This document shows, in pieces, positions 20,878 through 38,504 of a stretch of DNA of 64,000 nucleotides. The notes below the pieces were generated by a model. That model was given only the letters and a program-made list of their open reading frames with translations, did not search any database and was not told the DNA's origin. Source of the DNA: Candidatus Bathyarchaeota archaeon (lineage in GTDB: Archaea; Thermoproteota; Bathyarchaeia; Bathyarchaeales; Bathycorpusculaceae); contig CAVYHV010000017.1 in NCBI GenBank assembly GCA_963768425.1, forward strand, positions 96,001 through 160,000, in the 5' to 3' direction. Each line of letters starts with the position of its first letter. Within the stretch, counting starts at the first letter, position 1. A program made the translations under genes and the position numbers.

Positions 20878-21559
20878 CTATGCCTCCCTTAGCTCTCGAG
20901 GCATGTAATCATAAACGATCCCTCTTTGAATGGCTCTTTTCAGGTAGGCTTCAGGGTCGATTTCTTGAACTTTCGCATGGTCAACGTCGATGATATAAAT
21001 TTCATGGATTCGCGCGTTCCTTATTTCTTCAAGTTGTGACTGGCGGCTTCTGGTAGTAGGCGTCGCAGAGCCGTTTTATCTGCTGGATTTCCCAGTCTTC
21101 ACGGTTTCGGGGCGGCTTAGCCAATGCACGGGGAAACGGCAGAATATAGTGGGGTGGTACGCCTAGAGCGAATTTTCCTGCGAAGCTGCTGTACCTGATT
21201 ATTTTGCTTGCCAAACGTGCTGAAGTGTAAGTAAGCGGCGCTAGGGCGTTTTCAGGAGGAATGAAGCCTGTTTCAACCTCAACTATAAGGTTCCCTAAGC
21301 CCTTTGTAGCGAACAAGTCGCAGGTTAAAATCTCGTTTAGGGGATATTCAATCTGGACTTCGTGACCTTTTTCAACCAGGTACTTGGCGCAGCCAAGCTC
21401 CATCACGGAATGATTGATCTTCACGATGTTTTCTTTCCGAAGGTCTACGAGACAGTTTTTGAGGATGTTAAGTTTGTTTTTGACTTGCTCATCCGAATCC
21501 ACCGTCAGCCTTGACAGAAAAAAAGTTAAATCCTCTTCGAACTGTTGCCTGCTGCTCAT
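20878..21559 (-). CDS. conserved archaeal PD-(D/E)xK-like hypothetical protein, indel near 21030
   Basis: KINHSVMEL, CDLFATKG..IVEVETGF; reading continues in another frame to TAG at 20878. Confidence 0.75.
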
Positions 21560-21742
21560 TTACCTTCCTTTCCAAATTGACCTGACATGTTTACTTAAAC
21601 TATTTGGTTTCGGAATTCAAGAAGCCAAAACGCTTGGTCGTAAAGAAACAAAGGGGATTGCTTTTTTTATTTAGAATAATTTTTGTTATTTACTTATTCC
21701 TTTATCATAAAGAGACGCTGCTGTTTTTTCTTGAAAGCCAAT

Positions 21743-21928
21743 TTAGGGTTTTACGGGAACGAGTACAAGCCTTGTGTAGTTAACGTCGACTTCCACGATT
21801 TTGCAGTCTTTGAACTCTTTTGATTCGCCCAAAATGTTCCTGACTGTCACGTTGTCGCCTTCAACTTTGACGTAAATCACATCTTTAAACAAGGTTTTTC
21901 CGCCGAGGATAATGTTGAATTCACACAT
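21743..21928 (-). CDS. CooT-family small nickel-binding protein
   Basis: N-terminal MCE, KDV..V..EG, ILGE.K...CKI.EVD pattern. Confidence 0.8.
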   Translation of the reverse strand: MCEFNIILGGKTLFKDVIYVKVEGDNVTVRNILGESKEFKDCKIVEVDVNYTRLVLVPVKP

Positions 21929-22106
21929 AATCTTTCACGACTAAGGAAAAAGTTGTTCTACGTATTAAGGGCTTTCCGAAAACAAACGCAAAGCTCCGAA
22001 AGCAACTGCTTTATTGATTGGAAATTAAATCGCGTCCGGAGCTGAACCACAAGCTTTTTATTGATTCAATCGTGTATTTTTAAAGAATATTTAAAGAGGC
22101 ATAAAA

Positions 22107-22157
22107 ATGAGGGATCGTCACCTCAATCGCTGGGATCGTCGGGTACTTATTCTTTGA
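22107..22157 (+). CDS. putative ilv/leu leader peptide MRDRHLNRWDRRVLIL
   Basis: GAGG RBS, ATG at 22107, last four codons Val-Leu-Ile-Leu, TGA at 22155-22157, 99 nt before ilvB; TTTTTATT TATA-like box at ~22055. Confidence 0.7.
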   Translation: MRDRHLNRWDRRVLIL

Positions 22158-22256
22158 TTCGCCCAGGAACCCCTCTGAAAAACACGCAGCAAGATTTGCA
22201 GCTATTATTTTTCGAGACGAGAGCATGTTTATTGAAAAAGGAGAGATCGTTGAAAA

Positions 22257-23972
22257 ATGACTAAAATGTCTGGTGCAAAGGTACTCGTAGAATCCCTCGA
22301 ACAGCAAAACGTCGACGTTATATTCGGCATTTTGGGCGGCGCAATACTACCTGTTTATGATGCATTATGTGGCAACGAGAAAATTAGACATATACTCGCT
22401 AGACACGAACAGGGAGCCGCACACGCAGCCGAAGGCTATGCTAGAGCCAGCGGAAGAGTTGGAGTATGCATTGCAACGTCAGGACCGGGAGCAACTAACC
22501 TAGTCACTGGAATAGCGAACGCATACTTGGATTCTTCGCCGTTGATAGCCATAACAGGGCAGGTTCCATCGACCGGTGTAAACTCTTCGTACATGATCGG
22601 CAAAGATGCCTTTCAAGAAGCAGACATCATCGGCATCACCACTCCAATTACCAAGCATAATTATCAGCCTCGAACGATCGCTGAAATTCAGCCAATGGTT
22701 AATGCAGCCTTCTACATCGCATCTTCCGGCAGACCTGGACCAGTTCTTATTGACTTACCTAAAAACGTACAGTCAGACATAGCCGACGTGGATATGGGAA
22801 TTACAGGGAAAATTGAAGCTCGAGGCTACAAACCAGCATTGACTCCCGACTTAACCAAAATCAGCAAAGCAGTTGATTTGTTAGCTAACGCAGTTGAACC
22901 AATGATACTGGCCGGCGGAGGAGTCATCTCTGCAAATGCCTCCGACGAATTAACGCAAATGTCCGATTTACTAATTGCGCCGGTTGCTACGACCTTTATG
23001 GGCAAAGGCGCTTTTCCCGAATGCCACCCCCTGTCAGTTGGATGCATCGGAATGCACGGAAACCCAGCTGCAAACAGGCTCATCGGGGAAGCTGATGTGC
23101 TGTTAGCTGTCGGAACAAGATTTTCTGACCGAGCAACAGCTAACTTGGATACCTTCGCGCCAAACGCCAAAAAGATACACATAGACATTGACCCGGCTGA
23201 ACTCGGTAAAAACATTGACGTCGACGTCCCCATTGTTGGAGATGCAAAAGTATCATTAAAGCTACTGCATAATGCCGCTGCAAAGAAGCTGCCCAAGATG
23301 AAAGTTAACGCATGGTGGTCAAAACGCATCAAAGAAACCAAGGAGCAGCTAAGTCCATTGCTAAAAGACAGACCCAGAGAGCTGGTGCCTAAAGCCTTAC
23401 TGATAGAGCTAAGGAAACTTCTGCCAGTAGACACAATCGTAACAACAGAAGTTGGGCAAAACCAGATGTGGTCAGCCCTATACTTCCAAGCATTAAAACC
23501 AAGAACCTTCATCAGTTCAGGAGGACTTGGAACCATGGGCTTTGGGTTCCCGGCAGCCATAGGCGCAAAAGTTGCCTGCCCAGATAGGCCCGTCGTGGAC
23601 ATAGCTGGCGACGGCAGCTTCCTGATGACTGAGCAAGAACTGGCGTGTTCGGTAGCGGAAAAGATTCCAGTCATAGTCATAGTGCTGAACAATTCGGTAC
23701 TTGGCATGGTGGCGCAGTGGCAAAGAATGCTCTACGAACGCCGTTACATGGCGGTTCACTTAGGAAAAACACCTGATTTCGTGAAACTTGCAGAAGCTTA
23801 TGGTGCACAAGGTCTTCGCGTAAACTCGATTGAAGAGTTCCAGAAAGCGGTAAAAACAGCGTTAAACAGCGATGTTACAACGGTAATCGACGTGCCTATT
23901 GGCTCAGAACAAGATGTTGTTCCATTTGTGCCTCCAGGCTGCGGTTTACCACAACAGAGAGGTGACTATTGA
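22257..23972 (+). CDS. ilvB: acetolactate synthase large subunit
   Basis: RHEQGAAH, TSGPGATN, SGGLGTMG, GDGSF..N TPP motif. Confidence 0.97.
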   Translation: MTKMSGAKVLVESLEQQNVDVIFGILGGAILPVYDALCGNEKIRHILARHEQGAAHAAEGYARASGRVGVCIATSGPGATNLVTGIANAYLDSSPLIAITGQVPSTGVNSSYMIGKDAFQEADIIGITTPITKHNYQPRTIAEIQPMVNAAFYIASSGRPGPVLIDLPKNVQSDIADVDMGITGKIEARGYKPALTPDLTKISKAVDLLANAVEPMILAGGGVISANASDELTQMSDLLIAPVATTFMGKGAFPECHPLSVGCIGMHGNPAANRLIGEADVLLAVGTRFSDRATANLDTFAPNAKKIHIDIDPAELGKNIDVDVPIVGDAKVSLKLLHNAAAKKLPKMKVNAWWSKRIKETKEQLSPLLKDRPRELVPKALLIELRKLLPVDTIVTTEVGQNQMWSALYFQALKPRTFISSGGLGTMGFGFPAAIGAKVACPDRPVVDIAGDGSFLMTEQELACSVAEKIPVIVIVLNNSVLGMVAQWQRMLYERRYMAVHLGKTPDFVKLAEAYGAQGLRVNSIEEFQKAVKTALNSDVTTVIDVPIGSEQDVVPFVPPGCGLPQQRGDY

Positions 23973-27396: not shown

Positions 27397-28908
27397 ATGA
27401 CGAGTAAATATATTCGAATCTTAGACACTACCCTAAGAGATGGTGAACAAACTCCCGGGGTTTCTTTAACCTCTGAAGAGAAAATTGAGATTGCACGCCA
27501 ACTAGACAAACTAGGCGTTGACGTTATCGAAGCGGGTTTTCCAAGCTCCTCCGACGGCGAAAAAAAAGTTGTAAGAGAAATTGTCAAGTTAGGTTTAAAT
27601 TCTGAAATCTGCGCCCTTTCCAGAGCGACAAAAAAAGATATTGACGCGGCACTGGATTGCGAAGTCGACTTGATTCACGTTTTCATCCCGACTTCTGCAG
27701 TGCAGATGAAGTACGCCGTCAATTTAACGCCTGAACAAGTTTTAACTTCAGCAGTTGAGTCGATTGAGTACGTTAAGGCACACGGCGTGAAATGCGAGTT
27801 TTCACCTATGGATGCAACACGCTCCGAAATGCCCTTCCTCAAAAAAATCTGCCAAGCCGCACAGAAAGCAGGAATGGACAGCTTAAACCTGCCCGACACA
27901 GTCGGCATAATGATCCCAAGATCAATCATAAAATTCGTTGAAGATGTAAAATCCGTCGTTAACGTTCCAATAAGCATCCACTGCCACGATGACTTCGGAT
28001 TGGCAGTTGCAAACTCGCTGGCTGCAGTTGAAGCAGGCGCCGCTCAAGTGCATGTTGCCGTCAACGGGTTAGGCGAAAGGGCAGGTAACGCTTCGCTGGA
28101 AGAAGTGATTATGGCGCTGCATGTAATTTACAAGTACAAGACAGGCGTAAACAGCCGACTGCTCTACGGCACATCCCGAATGGTTTCCGCATTAACCGGC
28201 ATAGCTGTGCAGGCTAACAAGGCATTAGTCGGCGAAAACGCTTTCGCGCATGAATCCGGCATCCACACACGCGGAGTAACTGAGAAGCCATTAACCTTTG
28301 AACCGATAGACCCCGCACTAGTCGGACGCACAAGAAAACTTGTAGCTGGAAAACTAGCGGGAACAAGCGGCATCAAAGCAGAGTTGGAAGAAGTTGGCAT
28401 TAACCCAACCGAAGAGCAACTGAAAGAGATTGTCCAACGTGTTAAAGAACTTGGTGACAAGGGCAAAATGGTTACAGATGCAGATTTACTGGCGTTAACT
28501 TCCGCAGTTATGGGCGAAGTCATCAAAGAAGAAAAAATCGTTGACTTATGCGATATGGCAGTCGTCACAGGCATAAAAGTCATACCAACAGCCTCAGTGC
28601 GGCTGGTTCTAGACGGCAAAGAATACGTTGCCGCCGAGACAGGCGTGGGTCCAGTTGACGCAGTTCTTAAGGCAATCCAGAAACTAATTAGCAGCCAAGA
28701 AAAAATCCGTCTCAGAGAATATCGGCTTGAAGCTATCACTGGCGGCTCAAACGCCGTTGCAGAAGTCATCATCAAAGTGGAAGATGAAAAAGGCAACATC
28801 GTCTCAGCCCGCGCAGCAAGAGAGGACATTGTGATGGCAAGCGTCGAAGCGATGATAAACGGTATGAACAAGCTTTTGATTAAGCATAAGCAGGAAAACA
28901 AACCTTGA
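27397..28908 (+). CDS. leuA: 2-isopropylmalate/citramalate synthase
   Basis: DTTLRDGEQ, HCHDD, GERAGN, HESGIH motifs and C-terminal regulatory domain; LeuA versus CimA not resolved. Confidence 0.88.
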   Translation: MTSKYIRILDTTLRDGEQTPGVSLTSEEKIEIARQLDKLGVDVIEAGFPSSSDGEKKVVREIVKLGLNSEICALSRATKKDIDAALDCEVDLIHVFIPTSAVQMKYAVNLTPEQVLTSAVESIEYVKAHGVKCEFSPMDATRSEMPFLKKICQAAQKAGMDSLNLPDTVGIMIPRSIIKFVEDVKSVVNVPISIHCHDDFGLAVANSLAAVEAGAAQVHVAVNGLGERAGNASLEEVIMALHVIYKYKTGVNSRLLYGTSRMVSALTGIAVQANKALVGENAFAHESGIHTRGVTEKPLTFEPIDPALVGRTRKLVAGKLAGTSGIKAELEEVGINPTEEQLKEIVQRVKELGDKGKMVTDADLLALTSAVMGEVIKEEKIVDLCDMAVVTGIKVIPTASVRLVLDGKEYVAAETGVGPVDAVLKAIQKLISSQEKIRLREYRLEAITGGSNAVAEVIIKVEDEKGNIVSARAAREDIVMASVEAMINGMNKLLIKHKQENKP

Positions 28909-29717
28909 AAGTAGCCTATCAAGGTGAAACTGGTGCCTACGGCGAAATGGCGGTCTACAAGTTTTTCGGCAGCAAAGTGGAGCCATTTCCCTGCAAGGAC
29001 TTCCGCGATGTCTTCGAATCTGTAAAGACAGGCGCTGTCCCAAATGGTGTGGTCCCGATTGAGAACTCCATCGAGGGAAGCGTCAACCAAAACTATGATC
29101 TTTTCCTCACCTATGACCTCAAAGTTTGCGGCGAAGTTGCTGTGAAGCTTGCCCACGTCCTAATCGGTAATCCAGAAACCAAATTCGAGGACATCAAAAC
29201 CGTTTACTCGCATCCCCAAGCATTAGCGCAGTGCCGCAAATACTTAGAAAAGCACAAGTGGGAAATCATCCCCGCTTATGATACTGCCGGAGCCGTAAAA
29301 ATCATAAAAGAAAAAAACCTCACAAACGCTGCAGCGATCGCAAGCGAAAAAGCTGCAGACCTTTACAGCATGAAGATTCTTTCTCGAGATATCGCCGATA
29401 ATCCATCTAACTACACTCGATTTCTTGTCCTGGGCAATGAAGATGCAGCACCCACAGGTGACGATAAGACCTCGATCATTTTTTCAGCCAAACATGCTCC
29501 TGGAACTCTATACCATGCTCTTGGAGAGTTCGCGTCAAGAAACATCAACCTAACCAGAATAGAATCCAGACCGACAAAAACCACAGCTTGGCAATACAAC
29601 TTTTACCTCGACTTCGAGGGGCACAGAACCGAAAAGCGCTGCGCAGAAGCCTTAGAAGCGCTGGAAAAATACGCTACCTTCGTGAAGATTCTGGGATCTT
29701 ACCCAAGAGTCATTTAA
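28905..29717 (+). CDS. pheA: prephenate dehydratase
   Basis: PIENSIEG, SHPQALAQC, NYTRF, IESRP ACT, LGSYP motifs. Confidence 0.96.
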   Translation: MKVAYQGETGAYGEMAVYKFFGSKVEPFPCKDFRDVFESVKTGAVPNGVVPIENSIEGSVNQNYDLFLTYDLKVCGEVAVKLAHVLIGNPETKFEDIKTVYSHPQALAQCRKYLEKHKWEIIPAYDTAGAVKIIKEKNLTNAAAIASEKAADLYSMKILSRDIADNPSNYTRFLVLGNEDAAPTGDDKTSIIFSAKHAPGTLYHALGEFASRNINLTRIESRPTKTTAWQYNFYLDFEGHRTEKRCAEALEALEKYATFVKILGSYPRVI

Positions 29718-36781: not shown

Positions 36782-37465
36782 TCACTGTGCCCCCAAAAGC
36801 TCGTATGCAGCCTTCATTTTGCCGATAGACATTTGCCCCTTCGCAGTTTCGCTACCCTGCTCAAGACAAGCAAAAGTGAAGAAAGCGCCGAACATCGGTG
36901 AAATAAGCCTTGAAACCTTCCCTTCTTCGCCCATGCAGAAACAGACAAGCTTCACCTTACCTGAATGGGAAGATACAAAATTCAGCACTTCCAAATTGTC
37001 CTCGATTTTCTTGGCTGTCACCACAATTTTGCAGACGTTGGCGCCGCATGCGACTTCTTGCTCAAGAACGTTTTCCATCGATGAACGGCTTAATTCGCCG
37101 TCGAATTTGTGGTGGGAAACTATTATTTTGGCGCCCAGCTGCTTGAGTTTTTCGATTATTTCTTGGCGATTCGGGCTTGACAGGTCAACGTCAACGTACT
37201 CGAACCCGTTTTGGGCTGCATTTAGAAGACTTTGTTGACGTTCGGTTTCTGACGCCGAGGAAACGCCGTTTTCACTGGTCAGTTTATGGGTTGCGATTAA
37301 AGGGATTTTTGCGCTCTGAATAAATGCCTTCAAGTCTGTTGTAACATCCATGCGGTCGAGCCTAACTTCGATTAGGTCGGCTTTGGCTTCCTCCGCGCTT
37401 TTGATGAGGTTTAACGCTTCAGCCGTGTTTTTTGGAAGAATCGAAACGCAGATTCTCATTGTCAC
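36782..37465 (-). CDS. aroD: type I 3-dehydroquinate dehydratase
   Basis: IEVRLD, IVSHH, CKI, FCMGEEGKVSR, TA.GQ motifs. Confidence 0.95.
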   Translation of the reverse strand: MTMRICVSILPKNTAEALNLIKSAEEAKADLIEVRLDRMDVTTDLKAFIQSAKIPLIATHKLTSENGVSSASETERQQSLLNAAQNGFEYVDVDLSSPNRQEIIEKLKQLGAKIIVSHHKFDGELSRSSMENVLEQEVACGANVCKIVVTAKKIEDNLEVLNFVSSHSGKVKLVCFCMGEEGKVSRLISPMFGAFFTFACLEQGSETAKGQMSIGKMKAAYELLGAQ

Positions 37466-38504
37466 CTTTCAATCACCGTTTCTTCAGGCACGGAAACGCC
37501 AAAGTGCCTGCCTCCCTTAGCGGCTAAATGCACCAGAACCTCGTCGTTTACGTTGAGTTCCGTGACGGGTTTGGAGGCTTTCGGCGTGACAAGGCGGATG
37601 GTTTCAGCGTTTTGCAGTATAGTTTTGATTTTTGTGTCGTCCGCTTGCGCTTCAATCAGGATGAGTGGTCGGAACTCGATTTTTGACCTGCCCACATTGG
37701 TTATTCTTGCTTTTCCTTCTCTGTTAATGATTAAAACTTCGTCCCCGGCTTTCAGTTCAGAGAGGTACCGAGTGTTCTGGATCGATGTTAGCGTGTAATG
37801 TGATGCAGGTCCAGCGTTCACTCGGAAGGGTCGGGATTGCACATACGGGTTCTCATTTACTTCCGCCTCAACGAGGAAGAACCCTGCTGATTGGCAGCCA
37901 ACGAGCATTCCCTCGCCTGGAACCATCAAATCTACAGTGTCCACGCAGACTCTTGCACCTGTGCCGATAGTTTGAATGGAGAGAACCTTTGCGATCGTTA
38001 ACGCGACCTTAGGAATTTGACCCTTGACCAGCTTTACTGTTTTGGCGAGTTCATTGAGGTTTGAGGTTTTTAGTAGAACACCGTCTGTTCCCAGCTCTAA
38101 GGCTTCAAGAACCACTTTGGCTTCTTGCGCGGTGGCGACTTCGCGATAAGTTTGCTTTTACCCCCATGCGCCTTCGCAATTAAGTTCTCCAGCGGGATAA
38201 CACGCCAATCAAACGTGCTAATAATTATGTAATCAACTCCCATCTCAGCCGCTTTGGCAGCGCGGTTCTCTTCTTCTTTCCCTGTTATGTTGATTTTAAC
38301 GGCGGTTTTTCTGCTTTCATTTTTAGTTTGCGAAATTTTTTTCTCAGACAGATCAGCGAGGAAAACTATGTCTAATTTGCCGTTACGGGTGCTCGCTTGG
38401 GTTCCTTCGAGCACTACATCCGCGTTTTCATGTGCAGTGCTGAGCAAGTTTTCTTTTTCTTGCGGTGAAGCCGCATGTTCGATTTCTACCCAAAGTTCCT
38501 TCAC
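37462..38504 (-). CDS. 3-dehydroquinate synthase II (AroB'), split by indel near 38130
   Basis: DWRVIPLENLIA, RVCVDT, RPFRVNAG, LQNAETI, GRHFG motifs. Confidence 0.94.

Follow-up and report, generated by a model that had tools for sequence, protein, structure and literature searches.

A conserved leader with an apparently translated, Arg-rich reading frame before branched-chain amino acid operons of Bathyarchaeia

The DNA considered here, referred to as the window, is a stretch of 64,000 nucleotides (nt) from a Candidatus Bathyarchaeota archaeon (GenBank assembly GCA_963768425.1, contig CAVYHV010000017.1, positions 96,001 to 160,000 of the forward strand). All coordinates are those of the window. 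A short upstream open reading frame (uORF) precedes an operon for branched-chain amino acid biosynthesis, and the region 22093-22245 around it represents, at this locus, a leader family found before branched-chain, especially leucine-pathway, operons of the sampled relatives. Conservation extends to the open reading frame with its ribosome site, frame and length, and some segments of the uORF pair with downstream segments of the leader. The best explanation, to which a probability of about one half is assigned, is a translated leader coupled to an RNA switch that probably reports the supply of leucine or of branched-chain amino acids.

The leader and the operon of the window

The uORF starts with the ATG at 22107-22109 and stops with the TGA at 22155-22157; the ATG of the first operon gene, ilvB, follows at 22257, 99 nt further. 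The codons after the uORF start are AGG GAT CGT CAC CTC AAT CGC TGG GAT CGT CGG GTA CTT ATT CTT. An initial annotation of the window had placed this reading frame exactly, had set it upstream of an ilvBH-leuCDBA operon, and had noted a TATA-like element near 22055 and a GAGG ribosome-binding site, all of which are borne out by the sequence (TTTTTATT at 22055-22062 and AAAGAGG at 22093-22099) and by the Pfam assignments of ilvB, ilvN/H, leuC, leuD, leuB, and leuA. The features of the locus are the following.

22045-22062, plus strand: putative promoter element, a purine-rich stretch like a B recognition element, AACCACAAG, then TATA-like CTTTTTATT
22093-22099, plus strand: Shine-Dalgarno-like AAAGAGG, 7 nt before the uORF start, containing the 5' strand of the pairing P1 (22095-22099)
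22107-22157, plus strand: uORF of 16 codons plus TGA, peptide MRDRHLNRWDRRVLIL
22122-22124, plus strand: codon 6 of the uORF, CUC (Leu), the branched-chain codon that the family conserves
22240-22245, plus strand: ribosome-binding site of ilvB, GGAGAG
22257-23972, plus strand: ilvB, first gene of the operon (Pfam TPP_enzyme_N/M/C)
28905-29717, plus strand: prephenate dehydratase gene (PDT and ACT domains), last of the ilv-leu operon
21743-21928, minus strand: small CooT-like gene, divergent, upstream of the leader

The promoter-like block ACCGTAAACTTTTTATTTG is kept in the alignment of the genus, 45-50 nt 5' of the uORF start, and boxes of similar kind, AAA(A/G)CTT(T/A)TAAG, lie ~50 nt before the leader start in other families. 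A scan for bacterial-type promoters and terminators, which is ill-suited to archaea, returned nothing on the plus strand of the leader.

The order of the operon by Pfam is ilvB-ilvN-leuC-leuD-leuB-leuA-pheA, with its end at 29717; the domains after ilvB are ALS_ss_C, Aconitase, Aconitase_C, Iso_dh, HMGL-like with LeuA_dimer, and PDT. The ilvC gene of this genome is located on another contig (C14:193472-193978) with no leader-like uORF upstream, and the ilvD family (PF00920) was not found in the genome, which is 91% complete. A PDT gene of ~273 residues is annotated in the same place in an operon of family f7 (L292), and several other families have unannotated open reading frames of 271-282 residues at the operon end, a length like that of PDT.

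Contigs from RNA libraries cover 22104-23192 and 22111-22545, joining the uORF to ilvB. They are ~98% identical to the window, come from four libraries of one study and cannot show start, strand or level; DNA may be present in such libraries. A transcription start downstream of 22107, which the initial annotation had named as evidence against a branched-chain-sensing leader, was not seen, as one contig begins at 22104, but contigs of this kind cannot place a start. No RNA-library contig covers 21988-22103, and the uncovered part proves nothing. The source strain of the contigs differs from the window at 22140, 22170, and 22203; the C>T change at 22140 turns codon 12 from CGG to TGG, a variant shared with several other species.

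Spread, apparent translation and conserved core of the leader

The search for ilvB matched 32 of 41 genomes of relatives and, across the order, 186 of 301 genomes at E <= 1e-150. The 127 ilvB upstream regions that were read consist of 30 from the search in relatives, 60 chosen to spread over families, and 37 further ones from the same genus. A leader of this family is found at the 5' end of all 127 operons. An intergenic region precedes ilvB at 121 of these loci, and every one of the 121 holds a homologous uORF starting (A/G)TG AGG GA. The exact word RTGAGGGAT is present in 117 of them; the four variants have GAA, GAG or AAT at codon 3 or, in one case (L102), a start lost to ACG with an in-frame ATG two codons upstream. 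In the remaining six loci, which belong to family f7, ilvB is the second gene and the leader stands before the preceding leuA-like gene, an arrangement present in 11/11 genomes of the family (the six sampled and five further). Chance falls far short of explaining the uORF as a whole.

The leader is present once in the genome of the window: a relaxed leader pattern has one match genome-wide, and a scan of the genome for further copies found none. A strict-pattern scan over one genome per prokaryote species listed 80 records, of which 72 are genuine leaders: ilvB lies within 400 nt in 63, a leuC-like gene follows in 8, and the end of the locus cuts off 1. The titles of 67 of the 72 name Bathyarchaeota or Bathyarchaeia, and the other five are titled unclassified or other archaea. 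The remaining eight matches, in bacteria and one methanogen, have no branched-chain gene downstream and were rejected as chance. Pattern matches in five f7 genomes were also assigned to chance, the two that were inspected lying within a coding gene; the true f7 leaders, whose ribosome site is of the CGAGG type, came to light when the sequence 5' of the leuA-like gene was read. A class-wide search also matched families f20, f21, and f24; its f20 and f21 matches and the f24 match L350 fall within open reading frames of 117-544 codons and were not taken as leaders. Another f24 match (L349), a 16-codon open reading frame on a short contig with no branched-chain gene seen downstream, was not taken as a leader.

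In most families, the operon after the leader is ilvB-ilvN-ilvC-leuC-leuD-leuB-leuA(-pheA). The family of the window has the same operon without ilvC, and in f7 the leader is followed by the leuA-like gene and then ilvB-ilvN-ilvC. A second leader locus, encoding MRDRFL(F/L/R)R and a stop, lies ~135 nt before leuC-leuD-leuB-leuA in eight records named Bathyarchaeota or Bathyarchaeia (L166, L187, L195, L196, L211, L216, L222, and L227). In another order of the class, genus g129 of family f34 has nearly identical leaders encoding MRDSVLF... (L346 / L355 in G371:C11, and L344 and L345). They are present ~100 nt before leuA in two genomes and, in one genome, also ~130 nt before leuS, identified as leucine-tRNA ligase (NCBIfam TIGR00395, 923 bits). 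Leucine and branched-chain metabolism is the common denominator of the leader-bearing operons, and the Leu codon CUC is the one codon common to nearly all leaders. The codon content of the leader does not track the content of the operon consistently; one leader (f5g14) has Val and Ile and no Leu, yet its operon holds leuCDB. In the g129 genome with two leaders, ~40 nt around the start are identical between the leuA and leuS copies, which suggests a recent duplication of the leader.

The leader is apparently translated, judging from its sequence features. A Shine-Dalgarno word of the GAGG/GGAGG type is close upstream of the start in every leader printed. Among 119 leaders from 34 genera, the aligned start is ATG in 9 genera and GTG in 25; these leaders were picked by a search word requiring ATG or GTG, so that the independent cases for the start are L127 (ATG) and L102. 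A unit (A/U)GG-(G/A)AU-NNN recurs, and the second unit is in frame with the first in every architecture read. Synonymous variation is present at Val (GUU/GUA, in f7), Leu (CUC/CUU), and Arg4 (CGU/CGC/CGA/AGA).

Conservation within the uORF is uneven. The same-genus leaders have 16 codons in 57 of 60 cases, and Leu6 and Val13 are kept in all 60. The tail after Val13 reads LIL in 22 of the 60; others are QLF, QIL, QLL, QFF, YFY, HFY, PRN and more, and 11 have no Leu, Ile or Val in the tail. Pairwise identity within the genus is 0.968 at third positions and 0.934 at first and second positions of uORF codons 2-13, 0.449 and 0.62 in codons 14-16, and 0.71 and 0.846 in ilvB codons 2-10. Codons 14-16 are the least conserved part of the uORF, and the near-invariant third positions of the core therefore denote constraint at the nucleotide level beyond the needs of the peptide.

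Across 34 genera, the core M-R-D-R-x-L is kept, and examples of the peptides are MRDRFLVH, MRDRFLQV, MRDRYLI, MRDRFLR, MRDRILNHVRFL, MRDSRVRRNRFLRK, and MRDHWVSEGHEMGDRFIH. Arg makes up 0.28 of the leader peptides compared with 0.043 of the proteome. The proteome has a Leu/Ile/Val fraction of 0.237; the leaders, taken per genus, have 0.21 in frame and 0.26 and 0.19 when read in the two other frames. Codon 6 is CTC in 97, CTT in 3, and GTA in 19 of the 119 leaders; GTA marks leader forms that open with the Val unit and have the Leu/Ile codon later, and Leu is swapped for Ile (AUC/AUU) in some lineages. CUC accounts for 15% of the Leu codons in the genome of the window. The conserved set consists of the Shine-Dalgarno site, the ATG/GTG start, AGG GAU, one Leu/Ile codon, one in-frame Val codon, and the RNA pairings described below.

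These patterns bear directly on the sensor proposed by the initial annotation, in which the Val-Leu-Ile-Leu ending forms a classical attenuator and ribosomes stall on the four terminal codons under a shortage of branched-chain aminoacyl-tRNAs. The run occurs in the window, in the 22 same-genus leaders with the LIL tail and, as an ending of the same type, in single leaders of genera g38, g22, and g39; a hairpin and five T residues follow the uORF in the window, and bacterial ilvB leaders work in this manner (PMC10272879). However, the last three codons are the least conserved, tails such as HFY, PRN, QFF, and YFY dispense with Leu, Ile and Val, and the leaders of other families stop after 6-8 codons (e.g. 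MRDRFLR, MRDRYLI, and MRDRFLVH). The annotation had named the lack of Val/Leu/Ile enrichment at orthologous loci as the result that would speak against the run, and this lack is what the 34 genera display. A classical attenuator of this kind is considered very unlikely, and the ending is best explained as a lineage-specific tail rather than the core sensor. The broader proposal of a branched-chain-sensing leader fares better: upstream regions of ilvB do share a conserved, apparently translated uORF tied to branched-chain genes, while the ending in Val, Leu, and Ile is not conserved and the element proposed as the sensor is not supported.

A second possibility is that the peptide itself is the sensor, with the core M-R-D-R-(F/H/Y)-L arresting elongation or termination when a small molecule (e.g. 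free leucine) is bound and thereby blocking downstream expression. Conservation of the peptide core across 34 genera is consistent with this, as classical leaders keep only their regulatory codons. In many lineages, (D/N)R(F/Y)(L/I) lies 0-3 codons before the stop, and Arg4 is encoded by four different codons. Further support is provided by family f7 (L142, L143-L152), in which the conserved N-terminus of the leuA-like protein begins with an ATA codon 13-17 nt after the leader stop. The sequence there is ATA AGA ATT TTT GAC..., which reads (I)RIFDTTLRDG; the gene has no ribosome site and no conserved ATG, GTG or TTG in frame, and the candidate start position reads ATG, TTG, GTG, ATA, AGA or AAA in different genomes. 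Its translation would therefore depend on the terminating ribosome. The sequence suggests a non-canonical start or termination-reinitiation, and these features speak for translational coupling or reinitiation in this family more than for attenuation of transcription. The f7 arrangement lends weight to models that place the regulation at the terminating ribosome. In contrast, position 4 of the peptide also admits C, S, H, N, T, I or Y, and any of H, F, Y, I, V, T or W occurs at position 5; the nucleotide invariance of AGG and GAU is needless for a peptide, and 6-8 residues are very short for a sensor in the ribosome tunnel. A nascent-peptide sensor is regarded as quite unlikely. As the M-R-D-R-x-L peptide and its nucleotides are both conserved, selection on the peptide and selection on the RNA are inseparable.

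RNA pairings and the proposed mechanism

The first 13 codons of the uORF probably double as RNA structure. Four pairings were read from the sequences and tested on an alignment of 60 same-genus leaders; together with the other elements of the leader RNA, they are as follows.

22095-22099 with 22172-22176, plus strand: P1, AGAGG with CCUCU, the complement of the Shine-Dalgarno site
22109-22124, plus strand: P2, a local hairpin of GAGG (22109-22112) with CCUC (22121-22124), loop GAUCGUCA
22130-22166, plus strand: P3, a hairpin of CUGGG (22130-22134) with CCCAG (22162-22166)
22115-22119 with 22216-22220, plus strand: long-range pairing of UCGUC (uORF codons 3-5) with GACGA
22214-22226, plus strand: conserved box GAGACGAGAGCAU holding GACGA, before the ilvB ribosome site
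22186-22212, plus strand: small hairpin GCAGCAAGAUUUGCAGC then UAUUAUUUUU, with five T residues at 22208-22212, a candidate pause or termination site

P1 is paired in 95.0% of the alignment cells with no double change, and its 3' strand is kept in the genus as CCTCT(G/A)AA. The 5' strand of P2 is formed by the last base of the start codon and codon 2, and the 3' strand lies in codons 5-6; all four positions pair in 60/60 leaders, the pairs being invariant and hence without covariation. Other families have a longer form of P2, GAGGGA-UCGU-UUCCUC. P3, which encloses Val13 (GUA, 22143-22145), the variable codons 14-16 and the stop codon, is paired in 94.3% of cells; one of its pairs is GC in 44 leaders, GU in 9, AU in 5 and other in 2, and a variant CUGGA/UCCAG occurs in L004, L005, L093, L095 and others. 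The long-range helix is paired in 90.7% of cells. One pair is CG in 43, UA in 10, UG in 2 and other in 5, and the next is GC in 54, GU in 3, AU in 1 and other in 2; double changes are visible by eye in at least two separate sequence groups (the L019 group and L096). The downstream partner of this helix is kept in the genus as TAGACGA(G/C)AGTAT, about 35-45 nt before the ilvB start. Over all four pairings, 94.7% of cells are paired, compared with 42-50% when the partners are slid by 1-3 columns. Changes on both sides number 16 cells versus 4.5 in shuffles, and 0 of 500 shuffles reach the observed value.

The pairings help to weigh two further explanations. In the first, a transcription factor would bind downstream of the promoter to a DNA operator formed by the direct repeat GGGATCGTC (22111-22119 and 22132-22140, 21 bp apart). 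The two 9-bp copies are exact and two helical turns apart, and archaeal repressors often bind near or after the TATA box. Nevertheless, many families have only one copy, a ribosome site, a start codon and a maintained reading frame are part of what is conserved, and the word is at no other promoter of the genome (its 15-nt and 9-nt forms are found at this locus only, save scattered single 9-mer copies elsewhere). Moreover, changes in the first copy co-vary with the box ~100 nt downstream in the sense of RNA pairing. Such an operator is most improbable.

In the second, the leader would be an RNA structure with a ligand, a protein or tRNA-Leu as its direct binding partner, in the manner of a riboswitch or T-box, with the uORF untranslated or serving as an output platform only. 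Forty nucleotides are near-invariant, third positions included (0.968, against 0.71 in ilvB codons 2-10), stem changes keep pairing, loops are invariant, and the variable tail sits in a hairpin loop; by analogy, conservation of the CUC word is what would be expected of a T-box specifier. Against this, no Rfam family matches the leader in the window (21500-22700, E up to 10) or 16 leaders of other genera (E up to 1), and stability does not exceed that of shuffles. The Shine-Dalgarno site, start codon, frame and in-frame duplications of the unit are all conserved, and the architectures differ widely among families with units permuted, which is unusual for an aptamer. A structured RNA of this kind is judged unlikely.

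In the best explanation, a translated leader is coupled to an RNA switch. The position of the first ribosome on the uORF, notably a dwell at the Leu CUC of codon 6 and the Val GUA of codon 13, would pick among the pairings at stake, namely those of codons 3-5 to the GACGA box, of CUGGG to CCCAG, and of the Shine-Dalgarno site to CCUCU. A ribosome on the first codons would exclude P2 and the long-range pairing, and one further along or at the stop would exclude P3. The pairings chosen would set either transcription past the U-tract at 22208-22212 or the translation that reaches ilvB. The signal would most likely be the supply of leucine or of branched-chain amino acids.

Control by a leader is plausible in these organisms, since a textbook leader precedes the aromatic operon in 29/29 genomes of the same genus. 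In the window, a uORF with a C-terminal aromatic run, MTHSARFEASMSNLALNKENVASWFQSFDYFYYSYFPQAQN (40719-40594, minus strand), lies upstream of the aromatic operon at 40549-29782 and looks like a classical leader peptide by its sequence. The same-genus uORFs end in ...SF(D/E)Y(Y/G)FY.Y.F(P/T), 77-98 nt before the first gene of the aromatic operon, with a variable N-terminus and a conserved C-terminal Phe/Tyr/Trp run. Both leaders are short uORFs before biosynthetic operons and are conserved in the genus; the aromatic leader keeps its C-terminal codon run and varies N-terminally, whereas the ilv leader displays the opposite pattern. The classical design seems to exist in these organisms, and the ilv leader seems to depart from it. 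On the minus strand at 37462-38504, two overlapping open reading frames (38097-38504, profile positions 1-124; 37462-38115, positions 129-344) make up the 3-dehydroquinate synthase II gene (Pfam PF01959), a split due to either a frameshift or an assembly error.

Several observations weigh against the coupled leader and switch. None of the leaders has a synonymous change in AGG or GAU, though GAC and AGA are the commoner codons; most leaders were found by a search word that fixes AGG and GA, so this invariance partly reflects how the leaders were picked, and a genuine invariance would suggest that the RNA or the peptide has a specific role in addition to codon sensing. Leu, Ile and Val are unenriched, and a starvation sensor would be expected to have more than one codon each for Leu and Val. 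The covariation consists of few independent events (two or three double changes by eye) among related sequences, and the structure was derived from the same sequences on which it was tested. The fold of the whole leader is no more stable than shuffles (z +0.43), and RNAalifold on 23 sequences predicts 15 pairs, none with a compensatory change. Folds of 119 leaders with the ribosome masked leave the accessibility of the ilvB ribosome site unshifted (0.48-0.50 in all states) and give no support to a simple switch that sequesters the Shine-Dalgarno site. No clear alternative fold of the terminator/antiterminator type was found in single-sequence, RNAalifold or ribosome-masking folds. The small hairpin at 22186-22212 belongs to the single-sequence fold of the window leader. 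Runs of at least five T residues are present in the spacer of 48% of 58 same-genus (g1) leaders compared with 9% in shuffles, but the U-tract is no universal terminator, as 0/13 leaders of the sister genus g21 have such runs. Finally, the leuS gene of the second g129 species has no leader, which leaves the link in one of the two g129 genomes where leuS was found.

A bolder reading is a ribosome-dependent leucine sensor of a kind not yet described. Here, a peptide of 6-8 residues, MRDR-F/H/Y-Leu, made from a leader that is also an RNA switch, would halt the ribosome at or just after the single CUC, depending on leucine or on the charging of tRNA-Leu. It would control ilvB-leu, leuCDBA, leuA and, in one lineage, leuS, and in f7 it would act through termination-reinitiation onto a gene without its own ribosome site or canonical start. 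This reading is tentative and unlikely.

Significance and comparison with known systems

Control of amino acid operons by leader peptides is a textbook bacterial mechanism, and the E. coli leader uORFs ivbL, ilvL, and leuL are of the same general type as the uORF described here. A full-text search of open-access papers found no description of leader-peptide or uORF control of archaeal amino acid operons. The ilvB leader, conserved in archaea and with an Arg-rich MRDR-x-Leu start, looks like a new kind of regulatory leader; if the leucine-sensor reading is true, it would be the first leader-peptide regulon in Archaea as far as this search shows. It also indicates that a leader can be conserved for an Arg-rich start rather than for cognate codons, and standard leader-peptide searches would miss such leaders. 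At ~150 nt, this archaeal leader is well delimited and widely conserved, and it lends itself to mutation at its start codon, at the CUC and GUA codons, in the UCGUC/GACGA pairing, and in the tail, for which natural variants exist. Archaeal termination is described as not reliant on hairpin terminators (PMC13681488). With the aromatic leader as a contrast, it becomes testable whether and how archaea couple leader translation to operon expression without such terminators.

Among described systems, the closest are the bacterial uORF-containing motifs upstream of ilvB, which include Corynebacterium ilvB-II, ilvB-OMG, and Leptospira ilvB; their peptides are enriched in Ile, Leu and Val, with at least three consecutive Val codons in Leptospira (PMC10272879). 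With these motifs, the archaeal leader shares a short uORF with an AUG/GUG start and an in-frame stop, occurrence once per genome ~100-150 nt before ilvB, lengths divisible by three, and embedding in a conserved RNA motif. It differs in its archaeal host, in the unenriched Leu/Ile/Val (0.21 versus 0.237) and Arg-rich conserved part, and in the absence of an Rfam match.

TnaC, SpeFL, and the fungal arginine attenuator peptide are arrest peptides that sense metabolites. Like them, the leader lies upstream of a metabolic operon, has a conserved peptide sequence rather than a codon run, and in many lineages carries the motif close to the stop. It is much shorter (6-19 residues) and shows strong invariance at the RNA level. 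In Firmicutes, T-box leaders control ilv-leu operons and genes of aminoacyl-tRNA synthetases. The archaeal leader is distinguished from T-boxes by the lack of an Rfam T-box match, a size of only ~60-130 nt, and its own ribosome site and start codon; it resembles them in a similar gene set, consisting of leucine operons and, in one genome, leuS, and in a conserved CUC word.

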